This document shows positions 55,474 through 59,004 of a stretch of DNA of 64,000 nucleotides, one piece after another. A program made the position numbers and the translations under genes. Source of the DNA: a phage; sequence record PX880103.1; one strand, written 5' to 3'. Positions within the stretch are counted from its first letter, which is position 1. Each line of letters opens with the position of its first letter. The notes beneath the pieces are model-generated. The model searched no databases. It saw nothing but the letters and a program-made list of their open reading frames with translations, and was not told the origin of the DNA.

Positions 55474-55787
55474 CTAGAATCACAAGAACTTCCACATGAA
55501 TCGCCCGTCCATACATGAACAGGAACATTAGTATCATATGAATCAGAACTAGACTGTGTATTCTGCGTATTAGATGATGTAGGTGTTGACCAGCGCCAAG
55601 GATTTTTATAATATTCTTGGGCTTCTTCATAAGTCATAGTAACTGCTTCTACTGTTCCATCTCCCATATAAACATATTCAACTACAGTTAAAGGAAGATA
55701 GTCATTTGAAATAGGAACTACACCTTCCCCAGGAGTCGTAGAGAAAAAATCCGTAAAGAAACTTTTAAACCAATTAAAGATAAACAT
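55449..55787 (-). CDS. hypothetical protein with Ser/Cys-rich C-terminal tail
   Basis: 112 aa; C-terminus [19 protein letters not shown]. Confidence 0.5.
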
Positions 55788-55993
55788 TACAAAAAGCCTC
55801 TTTTGAATTCGACTTGCTTCTCACCATAATCATACCGAATCTCTGCATTAAACTCAACAGAACCATCTGCGTACATCATAAATGAATGCACGACAACTTC
55901 TGTAGACCATGGTTGCAATTCATATTTCTTCATTACATGCCGTGAAATGATAATATCTAAATCTTCATTTGGTTTAATCCAACGATTTAACAT
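55787..55993 (-). CDS. hypothetical protein
   Basis: 68-aa ORF. Confidence 0.5.
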   Translation of the reverse strand: MLNRWIKPNEDLDIIISRHVMKKYELQPWSTEVVVHSFMMYADGSVEFNAEIRYDYGEKQVEFKRGFL

Positions 55994-56054
55994 AGTGCTC
56001 TCCTCTATAAGATAATTCTATTATACCATACTCATTTTGGAAAGTAAACCAGTA

Positions 56055-56084
56055 AAATGAAAAAAGGACTCCCGAAGGAGTCCT
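56055..56084 (-). terminator. rho-independent terminator downstream of soc (same hairpin as at 3798-3817)
   Basis: ggactccttcgggagtcc + TTTTTTCATTTT on the minus strand. Confidence 0.55.
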
Positions 56085-56091
56085 TAAATTA

Positions 56092-56328
56092 TTAACCACC
56101 TATTTCTGTAGGGGTAAACATTGCAGCATTCTTAGTTTTCCAATCAGCTGCATCAGAAACTACGGTAGAATATGCTGCCTTTTCAGAAGGAAAGATCTGA
56201 TAATGAGAATCTGCGATACGATGCTCGTTAGAATAAATTTCAAACGGAACAGAAACTTCCATACCTTTAACTTCTTTGCCTTCACCTGCTGGATGAGTAA
56301 AGGTCTTGATGTTAACGAAACCACCCAT
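56092..56328 (-). CDS. soc: Soc small outer capsid protein
   Basis: 78 aa; GFVNIKTF...HYQIFPSEKAAYSTV resembles T4 Soc as recalled; late promoter upstream. Confidence 0.8.
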   Translation of the reverse strand: MGGFVNIKTFTHPAGEGKEVKGMEVSVPFEIYSNEHRIADSHYQIFPSEKAAYSTVVSDAADWKTKNAAMFTPTEIGG

Positions 56329-56361
56329 AATAAACTCCTTTATTGTTTAATTACAGGTGTA

Positions 56362-56369
56362 TTTATATC
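56362..56369 (-). promoter_or_regulatory. late promoter TATAAATA for soc
   Basis: Plus-strand tatttata = minus-strand TATAAATA ~35 nt upstream of the soc ATG. Confidence 0.5.
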
Positions 56370-56370
56370 A

Positions 56371-56889
56371 TCAATAACCTCGGTCTTGACGAGCGAAGTT
56401 TTCAGCATTTTTCAGATAATAAAGTTTAAAGATTTCTTCAGCCGTAAGACCGAGACCTTGGAACATGTTCAGAACGAAATGAAGAATATCAATCATTTCG
56501 AATTTAATTTCCAACTGGTCTTGTGGAGATAAGTCAGTAATCAGAGTTTCACGACGTTCACCGTGTTGCGACTTCCAAGGCTTCCATACAGCAGATGCAT
56601 CTTTTTCGCCATTGCTCATACCACCAAGAGAAGTCAGAAGTTCGCGGAATTCATCATCAATATAATCTTTCTGATTACGCAGCCAATCAACAACTTCACC
56701 TGCAGTAGCCAAATCATCAGGATGACGGTTATATTCAGGTTTATCTTTAGCTAAACGAACCTGCAGAGATTTCTGCATATCAAGCATAACTTGCAACGGA
56801 TCTTTTTCATCACCGAGAATATCCCAGTATTCATTTTGAGCTTTATCAGCGCCTTCGATCAGTTGACTACATTCGTTGAAATGTGGCAT
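56371..56889 (-). CDS. 56: gp56 dCTPase/dUTPase (MazG-like)
   Basis: 172 aa ~ T4 gp56; MazG-like EMIDILHFVLNMF helix; adjacent to soc. Confidence 0.85.
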   Translation of the reverse strand: MPHFNECSQLIEGADKAQNEYWDILGDEKDPLQVMLDMQKSLQVRLAKDKPEYNRHPDDLATAGEVVDWLRNQKDYIDDEFRELLTSLGGMSNGEKDASAVWKPWKSQHGERRETLITDLSPQDQLEIKFEMIDILHFVLNMFQGLGLTAEEIFKLYYLKNAENFARQDRGY

Positions 56890-56890
56890 G

Positions 56891-57541
56891 TTATTTTTCC
56901 TTTCTTATGAAGTTTTCTATCATATGTCTATAGCAGATATTAGGATAACCTGCCTTGACAGCTATTTTATTAAATTTTGTGCGCTTAGGTCTATTATTAT
57001 AAACCCATAATTCATAAAGCGCATCATAACTATTCCATATTTCTCCTCGCCTAGGATTTGGTAAACCATATCGAGGTGAATTTTTACCGCTAAATCTTCC
57101 TTTTCGGGCTTTACTCATATTAGCCTTGGCTTCATCGGATATAATTTTACCTTTATGAGCTAGACGCATTTTGGCTTTAGTTTCTTCTGGGGTCTTTTTG
57201 CCTTTAATCCATGACGGCTTGCCATATCTAGGATTATTTTCACCCGAGAAAAGAACAGAGTTTTGGATTTTAAGGGTTTCTATTAATCTACTTGTTAATT
57301 TAACACCTTTATTATATCGCATTAAATTTACAGCATAATGCAATCCTCTCACATCTGGATATATTTTAGTTAATAATCTATGAGCTATAAAATGCTCACG
57401 CGCAGTTAACTCAACAAGATTGTTTTTGTCATCTGCTCCTCCTATACATCTAGGAATTATATGATGGCGTTCTTTATATCCGCCAAGATGCCGGCATTTA
57501 GCTTTTGTAATTAAAGCCGAGTAAATTTTTTGGTAATTCAC
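56891..57541 (-). CDS. HNH homing endonuclease with NUMOD3-like DNA-binding repeats
   Basis: 216 aa; HNH core ERHHIIPRCIGGADDKNNLVELTAREHFIAH; repeats TPEETKAKMRLAHKGK and SDEAKANMSKARKGR; starts with GTG. Confidence 0.75.
   Translation of the reverse strand: MNYQKIYSALITKAKCRHLGGYKERHHIIPRCIGGADDKNNLVELTAREHFIAHRLLTKIYPDVRGLHYAVNLMRYNKGVKLTSRLIETLKIQNSVLFSGENNPRYGKPSWIKGKKTPEETKAKMRLAHKGKIISDEAKANMSKARKGRFSGKNSPRYGLPNPRRGEIWNSYDALYELWVYNNRPKRTKFNKIAVKAGYPNICYRHMIENFIRKEK
56891..57541 (-). mobile_element. freestanding homing-endonuclease gene inserted between genes 56 and 61
   Basis: HNH/NUMOD3 architecture typical of T-even mob/seg elements; intergenic position between conserved core genes. 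Confidence 0.5.
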
Positions 57542-57611
57542 ATATATCCTTTCAATTCATGGGTTAGTAGATTAATTATACAATAAATATATAAAGCAAT
57601 AAGGAGGACAT

Positions 57612-57812
57612 ATGGTACAAAAATTAATGGCACTTGTTAATGCCATCAAAGGTAATAAGAAACGTATAGCTTTTACTATTTCTGCTATGGTAGGAATTTT
57701 ACTCTGGAATTTTGTTTTATCGCCAATTGCTATTGCTCATGGCGTTAATATTCCAGTAATTACTCTTGATACATTCGTAGATTTAGCATTTGCTTTAGTT
57801 GGGTTAATTTAA
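57612..57812 (+). CDS. small membrane protein, opposite strand to all neighbours
   Basis: 66 aa with two hydrophobic segments; strong AAGGAGG RBS 4 nt before the ATG; 3' end overlaps the gene 61 stop. Confidence 0.5.
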   Translation: MVQKLMALVNAIKGNKKRIAFTISAMVGILLWNFVLSPIAIAHGVNIPVITLDTFVDLAFALVGLI

Positions 57813-58837
57813 ATCTTAGCATATTTAGATAGCCGCATTTTAGCCATCAACCCTTGAGCAATATTATTTTTCATATATTCCATAATTTGTTCAGGGGTTG
57901 CACCTTCCTTTCTAATCATATCATTAACATCTTTTGATTTCCAGGGAGATTTGTCCCAAAACATAACCCTTTCTCCTGCATCAACTAATTTAGTCATTCG
58001 TTTAATAGTGTCAGGGTGACGAGGTTCATTATCTAAAACCCATACACGTCTATCTTTAAATGGAACAATTTCTAGGTCTAATTGACCACCCGTAATAGCT
58101 ATACCATTTTCAATAAAAAGTGAATCTATAGGTCCTTCTAGAACATATACATCACCATCTTTAACTCGTTCGACTCCATATATTTTTGTTGCCTCAGGAT
58201 AAGCTTTAATGGTGATATATTTTTGGGGAGCATCTTTCTTTAATGCACGTCCTTGAAAAGACTCAGCTTTTCCATTAGCATTATAAATTGGAATAACAAG
58301 ACGAGGCTCAGAAATTTCCTTTTTATATGTTCCCGGTGCTATGCTATTAACCAATTTAGGCCATTCGGTTGTAAACCAAAGATATTTCCATTTATCCTTT
58401 GGAATACAACGAGCTTTTACATATTTTATAATTGGATGGTCTTCCGTCAGTTTATCTAATCTAACACATGACGGAAGAGATTTAATTATTTTCTTCTCAG
58501 GTTGTTTAGGAAGTTCTTTAGGTTTTTCTACTGGACGACTTTTACCTTTTTCTTTTCTTATTTCAAAGATATACTCACGATATAAATCAGGTTCAAACTC
58601 CTTTAAATATATTCCGATTGGTGCATGATAGTTGCAGTTATAACAATGAATATTTCCTTCATTATTATCACCATAATACCATCCACGAGCTTTATTCTGG
58701 TCGGTTTTTGAATCTCCACAAACAGGGCATCTAAACCGTAATTTAAAAGTTGAACTATTATTTACTTGTGTGAATTTAGGTAAATGAGCTAATGCACGAT
58801 ACGCAAACTCATTATCAATCCAAGGTATTGATGACAT
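57809..58837 (-). CDS. 61: gp61 DNA primase
   Basis: 342 aa = T4 gp61 length; zinc ribbon CPVCGD...CYNC and TOPRIM domain. Confidence 0.93.
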   Translation of the reverse strand: MSSIPWIDNEFAYRALAHLPKFTQVNNSSTFKLRFRCPVCGDSKTDQNKARGWYYGDNNEGNIHCYNCNYHAPIGIYLKEFEPDLYREYIFEIRKEKGKSRPVEKPKELPKQPEKKIIKSLPSCVRLDKLTEDHPIIKYVKARCIPKDKWKYLWFTTEWPKLVNSIAPGTYKKEISEPRLVIPIYNANGKAESFQGRALKKDAPQKYITIKAYPEATKIYGVERVKDGDVYVLEGPIDSLFIENGIAITGGQLDLEIVPFKDRRVWVLDNEPRHPDTIKRMTKLVDAGERVMFWDKSPWKSKDVNDMIRKEGATPEQIMEYMKNNIAQGLMAKMRLSKYAKI

Positions 58838-58839
58838 TT

Positions 58840-59004
58840 TTACTCTTCTTTTTCTTTAGATTCCTCTTTTTTCTTTTTAGGAATCTGTTCAGGACCTTTA
58901 TTTACTACAGCGCCTGATGTTGTTCCAGTAGAGATATTTTCAGGATTACCACCTGAATCTCCAGCGACCATATCTTCTTTGATAAATTCTTTATATGTTT
59001 TCAT
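58840..59004 (-). CDS. small lysine-rich ORF (61.1 position)
   Basis: Hand-translated 54 aa MKTYKEFIKEDMVAGDSGG...; below track cut-off. Confidence 0.35.
   Translation of the reverse strand: MKTYKEFIKEDMVAGDSGGNPENISTGTTSGAVVNKGPEQIPKKKKEESKEKEE

Follow-up and report, generated by a model that had tools for sequence, protein, structure and literature searches.

Here we describe a freestanding HNH endonuclease gene that sits between genes 61 and 56 of a T4-like phage and probably homes to the translation-initiation region of gene 56. On the alignment and profile evidence given below, the open reading frame is a real and intact gene of the Mob-family freestanding homing endonuclease type. The window, by which we mean the whole 64,000-nucleotide stretch of DNA that was analysed (sequence record PX880103.1), comes from a Tequatrovirus genome; it is about 96-98% identical to the Yersinia phages fPS-2 and PYPS2T and to several E. 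coli phages, and identical to no record. The gene and its two neighbours are arranged as follows.

56891..57541, minus strand: open reading frame of the freestanding Mob-family HNH homing endonuclease, 216 aa, with a GTG start and a TAA stop (ORF list).
56371..56889, minus strand: gene 56 (dCTPase/dUTPase), which lies next to it on the downstream side and is the likely target (Pfam dUTPase_2; 73% identical to T4 gp56).
57809..58837, minus strand: gene 61, encoding the primase (ORF list, Pfam and annotation of relatives).

On the minus strand the genes run 41, dmd, 61.4, sp, 61.2, 61.1, 61, HNH, 56 and soc. The HNH gene lies between 61 and 56 and leaves gene 56 uninterrupted, so that it is freestanding, and an Rfam search of positions 55500-59000 detected no group I intron or other Rfam family. 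The insert shows no compositional anomaly, with a GC content of 0.32-0.37, similar to that of its flanks.

A previous reading of this DNA, made from the sequence alone, had proposed a freestanding homing endonuclease of the mob/seg type with an HNH core, two NUMOD3-like repeats and a GTG start. This architecture is borne out by the invariant catalytic residues, the Pfam NUMOD3 match, the match to PHROG 655 and the identity to MobE. The protein can be divided into three parts.

57242..57541, minus strand: N-terminal HNH (His-Me finger) nuclease domain, residues 1 to ~100.
57092..57235, minus strand: two NUMOD3 repeats forming a linker/DNA-binding region, residues ~103-150.
56894..57055, minus strand: C-terminal three-helix domain, a putative helix-turn-helix DNA-binding module, residues 163-216.

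We take the GTG as the true start of the gene because the N-terminus reads MNYQKIY, exactly as the family consensus does in the homologue alignment, and because the homologue in phage VR5 has an ATG at the same codon. The catalytic HH...N...H(xxx)H motif of HNH endonucleases is present in the 216-aa protein, and once it is properly aligned H26, H27, N41, H50 and H54 prove to be invariant in 40/40 homologues. The Pfam HNH model (PF01844) reaches 18.8 bits against a gathering cut-off of 21.4 (E 0.0019), just under threshold, with a match that covers just the central 21 residues of the model; judged against the conserved motif, this shortfall is marginal and is outweighed. The NUMOD3 model (PF07460) matches two stretches with E 8e-7, at 29.3 bits against a cut-off of 20.4.

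Comparison with proteins of known structure gave a mixed outcome. A profile search of the PDB matched the HNH motif of McrA (6ghc) at E 0.0055 and the DNA-binding domain of I-TevI (1i3j) at E 0.01; structure comparison, on the other hand, returned no significant match to I-HmuI or to other solved homing endonucleases. The AF2 model of the protein has a mean pLDDT of 83 and places strands at residues 24-27 and 42-45, followed by a helix at 47-60, all with pLDDT >90, which would make up a beta-beta-alpha unit spanning residues 24-60. The NUMOD3 region is poorly ordered in this model and the C-terminal three-helix bundle is confident.

Among phage proteins the relationship to known homing endonucleases is close. 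PHROG 655, annotated 'homing endonuclease', matches at 1.3e-59, no family in NCBIfam matches, and 2682 homologues are found at E <= 1e-5. Over the HNH domain (residues 1-82) the protein is 63% identical to T4 MobE (E 9e-34), and its identity to T6 MobE is 45% over 165 aa. GenBank records label the gene 'homing endonuclease', 'MobE' or, in one record, 'putative mobile endonuclease D'.

The insertion itself can be read to the nucleotide. Following a proposal of the sequence-only reading, the junction was compared with phages that lack the insert: the window was aligned with ESh36 (no HNH gene, no dam), T4 (dam only), IME537 (both) and fPS-2 (HNH gene only). The exact insertion point lies between the Shine-Dalgarno sequence of gene 56 and its ATG, where a clean 649-nt indel separates the window, fPS-2 and IME537, which carry the insert, from ESh36 and T4, which do not; the sequence-only reading had overlooked this precise placement. 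On the coding strand the naive allele reads ...TTGAAAGGA AAAATA ATG GCT (T/C)AC TTT AAT..., and the window reads ...TTGAAAGGA TATAT GTG, then the HNH gene, then ...AGAAAGGA AAAATAAC ATG CCA CAT TTC AAC.... From this reading of the two junctions it follows that the cassette measures 649 nt and is bounded by a 7-nt direct repeat, GAAAGGA. The signals in and around the insert are the following.

57547..57553, minus strand: upstream GAAAGGA, the Shine-Dalgarno sequence of the HNH gene and the native ribosome-binding site of gene 56 (sequence; alignment with ESh36 and T4).
56898..56904, minus strand: second GAAAGGA, within the last codons of the HNH gene (R K E K stop), now the ribosome-binding site of gene 56 (sequence, alignment).
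57575..57599, minus strand: predicted MotA-type middle promoter, with a MotA box TTGCTTTA (57599..57592), an 11-nt spacer and a -10 element TATAAT (57580..57575).
57624..57649, minus strand: terminator-like hairpin that follows gene 61 and precedes the middle promoter (consensus scan; a terminator stands at the same place in fPS-2).
56857..56889, minus strand: first 33 nt of gene 56, recoded (ATG CCA CAT TTC AAC ... ATC), a co-transferred tract and candidate immunity/target region (comparison with phage Mexia; 56/56 junctions).

The upstream GAAAGGA stands 5 nt ahead of the GTG. The fPS-2 record carries a 'predicted middle promoter' at the same region as the promoter predicted here. In the T4 record the corresponding region lies upstream of gene 56, the origin oriA is annotated 22 nt inside that gene, and the transcript of gene 56 is given there as the primer RNA for oriA. 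The middle promoter probably drives an HNH-56-soc transcript. Since the insert adjoins a promoter and a native ribosome-binding site that were there before it, the HNH gene would be a cassette that brought no promoter with it and now heads the transcript made from the middle promoter of gene 56. [quoted passage not shown] Just 3' of soc, a strong terminator-like hairpin (56064-56085, minus strand; 9 pairs, 5 GC, then a T-run) closes the predicted HNH-56-soc transcription unit, and a terminator is annotated at the corresponding place in fPS-2.

In T4 the gene dam is found between 56 and 61. The sequence-only reading had remarked on its absence from this interval, correctly, as the 64-kb window holds no dam homologue, and had added that the element may have displaced dam. 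This second suggestion does not survive the comparison. That the HNH insertion deleted or replaced dam would agree with the window, which has the HNH gene without dam, and with T4, which shows the opposite; however, IME537 and ELT1 carry both genes and ESh36 carries neither, so that with fPS-2 all four combinations of presence and absence are represented. The HNH insertion and the boundary of the dam cassette (AAGCAAT on one side, AAGGAGG on the other) are also ~45 nt apart, the latter being further upstream and separated from the former by the middle promoter, which makes the two indels separate events with boundaries of their own. We regard displacement of dam as refuted on these grounds and give it practically no credence. 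As a side observation, phages with a full dam cassette, such as IME537 (L002 4256-4816) and EC128 (L055 1144-1704), have a 186-aa ORF preceding dam. It resembles the DpnII (GATC) restriction endonuclease weakly (E 0.0045, under the Pfam cut-off), and T4 lacks most of it. The 186-aa ORF may be the remnant of a GATC restriction-modification pair.

The HNH gene occurs sporadically among related phages and, wherever the locus was read, at the same site. Its DNA was found in 59 phage records, one copy in each, against ~794 records that match the 3-kb locus (~7%). Both counts include duplicate RefSeq/GenBank entries and a lab-derived series of Klebsiella phages, so that the number of independent events is below 59. 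With a 121-nt probe made of the 3' end of the HNH gene and the first 50 nt of gene 56, the junction proved to be in the identical position in 56/56 window-type carriers, each with a full-length match at 95.9-100%. The gene is directly upstream of gene 56 in every locus read, in three genera: in Tequatrovirus, in Klebsiella phages such as Mexia, and in Dhakavirus VR5, where it is a 79%-identical variant. More distant variants from metagenomes, at only 80% and 56% identity, likewise have a gene 56 homologue immediately downstream of them. The gene is missing from T4, T6 and most relatives, and the nearest gene in T4 and T6 is mobE; the ORF is accordingly not a conserved resident of the T-even 56-61 interval. 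Sporadic presence at a fixed site among close relatives is what is expected of a homing gene. Endonucleases of other families were sought at the same junction upstream of gene 56 in distant T4-like phages, and none of the upstream ORFs tested has a nuclease domain. One IMG/VR contig (2974741249; L037/L048), in which the HNH gene is accompanied by two tandem copies of gene 56, was considered as a recombination footprint and rejected: it is probably a chimeric assembly of mixed phages, because pieces of gene 61 are duplicated and the HNH gene is truncated at its 5' end.

Comparison of the window with Mexia reveals how the gene has travelled. The ends of the HNH gene are 94-100% identical between the two phages, whereas most 50-nt windows of genes 56 and 61 show an identity of 45-75%. 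Likewise dS is lower in the HNH gene (0.42) than in gene 56 (1.67), and gene 61 is saturated. The first 33 nt of gene 56 are 100% identical, after which the two sequences diverge to 48-86% identity in 50-nt windows; judging from this abrupt change, the 33-nt tract travelled with the HNH gene. On the upstream side the shared sequence ends within ~20 nt of the gene, and the gene is found in both dam-plus and dam-minus promoter haplotypes. The identity profile, the contrast in dS and the 33-nt tract are those of horizontal spread with co-conversion of the flanks, as in homing genes, and suggest that the gene has recently crossed from one phage genus to another. All the copies examined are full-length, and dN/dS is 0.10 between the window and Mexia and 0.10-0.19 over all comparisons, with dS up to 0.75. 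By this measure the gene is under purifying selection. The suggestion that the element may be actively mobile fits well with its sporadic occurrence, its single insertion point in three genera, its far higher conservation than that of its flanks and these dN/dS values.

The HNH gene is itself a mosaic. At 56971-57220, the NUMOD3 segment of the window is 74-80% identical to that of Mexia and 94-100% to that of VR5, and the N- and C-terminal parts of the VR5 gene are only 64-78% identical to the window, a pattern that implies recombination between endonuclease variants.

Two other readings of an intact gene with this history have to be weighed. The gene could be an intact but currently inactive passenger, which once homed but no longer cuts at a specific site, and which now persists and moves only by the general homologous recombination that is very frequent when T4-like phages infect the same cell. 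Mosaicism is pronounced in T4-like genomes and is seen in gene 56 when the window is compared with VR5, the mosaic segments of the HNH gene indicate that ordinary recombination acts at the locus, and several Mob genes of T4 have no demonstrated activity (Table 1 of PMC2988022). We nevertheless consider a passenger unlikely, since an inactive gene should decay, and here the constraint on the protein extends over the whole range of dS, the examined copies are full-length and the catalytic residues are invariant. The short tracts transferred with the gene in several backgrounds, 33 nt within gene 56 and <20 nt upstream, also fit conversion initiated by a break better than random crossovers.

Purifying selection agrees, too, with a domesticated nuclease that is useful to the phage, either as a weapon against competing phages or satellites or as a nickase at the gene 56/oriA region. 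Such a role is compatible with the location of the gene, next to the promoter and the start of gene 56 in a region to which oriA is assigned in T4, and HEG-derived defence genes have been described in other phages, for example odn of ICP1 (PMC10448857). Yet a gene that is carried by ~7% of related phages, and that close relatives do without, is dispensable; HNH-less alleles with the recoding of carriers, described below, are consistent with repeated loss of the gene; and the sequence bears no mark that would set it apart from ordinary Mob genes. Domestication appears to us quite improbable.

The reading that we prefer, a Mob-type endonuclease gene that probably homes to the start of gene 56 and for whose homing nature the comparative evidence is strong, draws attention to the first codons of that gene. 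All window-type carriers have AAC ATG CCA CAT TTC AAC in common, and most HNH-less phages have A(TA) ATG GCN (C/T)AY TTT AAY. Among the loci read, this signature is present in 5/5 window-type carriers and in 3/40 non-carriers, counts in which kinship is not taken into account. The minority of HNH-less phages with the signature includes L008, L023 and L024; in the phage collection EC128, PD112, CE1, TB004, Sf23, CHD94UKE2, G3F7 and others also have the signature without the gene. Such scar alleles read ...TTGAAAGGAAAAATAAC ATG CCA..., which matches the sequence expected from a deletion between the two copies of GAAAGGA or from a conversion resolved inside the 13-nt homology. The scar alleles would be products of loss after invasion or of HEG-less conversion, and may be resistant.

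Close relatives of the ESh36 type differ from the window, over the ~190 nt of gene 56 compared, only in the first 33 nt and the junction; because they differ only there, any discrimination between self and non-self must reside in these first 33 nt or in the junction. In the VR5-type and 80% variants, the 5' codons of gene 56 are largely naive, and recoding is therefore not the sole or universal route to self-protection. The target may lie elsewhere, or the variants may recognise somewhat different sites.

Homing of this gene would proceed along the following lines. A promoterless cassette of 649 nt, lodged between the native Shine-Dalgarno sequence and the ATG of gene 56, would owe its transcription to the MotA-dependent middle promoter that gene 56 already possessed. 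Its translation would begin at a weak GTG start served by the native ribosome-binding site, while its 3' end would provide gene 56 with a second such site. When phages with and without the insert infect the same cell, the NUMOD3 repeats and the C-terminal helix-turn-helix domain would bind the enzyme to the insert-less allele, and by analogy with MobE it would nick or cut one or both strands at or near the ribosome-binding site or the first, MAHFNEC-coding codons of insert-less gene 56. Recombinational repair from HNH-bearing genomes would then copy in the gene with a short flanking tract, and two features would shield the carrier genome, namely the insertion as such and the recoding of the first codons in gene 56. 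In this scheme we infer the enzymatic activity, the choice between a nick and a double-strand break, the exact target and the timing of expression.

A more specific version, which we put forward tentatively and think rather less likely to be right than wrong, is that this Mob lineage is a nicking homing endonuclease that recognises the ribosome-binding site and first codons of essential gene 56, the same spot as the oriA-priming middle transcript of T4. If so, the naive, HNH-bearing and HNH-less recoded alleles would record a full cycle of invasion, loss and resistance, and exchange of the NUMOD3 segment between variants would give the enzyme new targets in different phage genera. With an endonuclease often present on the other side of gene 56, the locus would also act as a 'HEG island' that drives whole gene 56 alleles through T4-like populations.

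The closest characterised relative is T4 MobE. The mobE gene is promoterless and lies upstream of nrdB; its product nicks T2 nrdB at nt 122-126, in the 5' part of the gene, in a reaction that is strand-specific and HNH-dependent, after which repair copies mobE together with its flanks (PMC2790892). Besides the similarity of their HNH domains, mobE and the window gene are both freestanding and sporadic, each immediately precedes a conserved essential gene that is read in the same direction, and the window gene, like mobE, would rely on the promoter of a host gene. The differences are nonetheless clear. The locus is nrdA/nrdB for mobE and 61/56 for the window gene; MobE has 141 aa and lacks the extra C-terminal three-helix domain of the 216-aa protein; two clear NUMOD3 repeats and a GTG start distinguish the latter; and no counterpart was found in the window gene of the hairpin sequestering the ribosome-binding site and the internal terminator that were described for mobE. 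T4 MobD resembles the window protein over its full length at ~35% identity (mobD of RB7 and VR26), far below the identity of MobE in the catalytic domain, and it sits between nrdC.11 and mobD.1 with no known target (PMC2988022).

Another T4 endonuclease, SegF, has gene 56 as its documented target (Table 1 of PMC2988022). Like the HNH gene, segF flanks gene 56; unlike it, segF encodes a catalytic domain of the GIY-YIG type and lies on the opposite (3') side, between 56 and soc. It is absent from the 64-kb window. The gap between soc and 56 in the window (56329-56370) contains no endonuclease gene. In fPS-2 (278 aa; L003 1864-2700) and Mexia (229 aa; L052 1802-2491), an endonuclease gene other than segF occupies this position, so that in these phages gene 56 is enclosed by endonuclease genes. 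Over its last 49 aa the 278-aa protein of fPS-2 is 47% identical to residues 164-211 of the window protein, which suggests that a C-terminal DNA-binding module is common to the two genes flanking gene 56.

The layout of the window protein is also that of intron-encoded enzymes. I-HmuI is built from a nuclease domain, a NUMOD linker and a helix-turn-helix. In I-HmuI and I-TevI, as in the window protein, a catalytic domain is followed by NUMOD3-type repeats and a small helical DNA-binding domain; unlike theirs, the window gene is not intron-encoded.

A review of the mobile elements of T4 lists 15 endonuclease genes, none of them at the 61/56 or dam/56 junction (PMC2988022), and the papers searched contain no description of an endonuclease at either junction. 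The HNH gene is a not yet characterised member of the Mob family, which is itself well known, and nothing fundamental is changed in the knowledge of homing endonucleases. It adds to the family a member with an unusually well-defined natural history, in which the exact insertion point, the 7-nt bounding repeat and the 33-nt tract are all visible. Naive, occupied and scar alleles are all available among sequenced phages, which makes the locus well suited to studying how homing without an intron is driven by HNH nickases, by what means carriers protect themselves and how such genes pass from one phage genus to another. Moreover, unrelated endonucleases would appear to target gene 56 from either side.

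Between gene 61 and the HNH gene lies a convergent 66-aa hydrophobic ORF (57612..57812, plus strand), which has a strong AAGGAGG Shine-Dalgarno sequence and overlaps the stop codon region of gene 61 by 4 nt. The minus-strand terminator-like hairpin after gene 61 falls within its 5' end. The ORF matches PHROG 2024, a function-unknown family, and is conserved in T4 with differences that are mostly synonymous; the T4 RefSeq record leaves that dam-61 gap unannotated.
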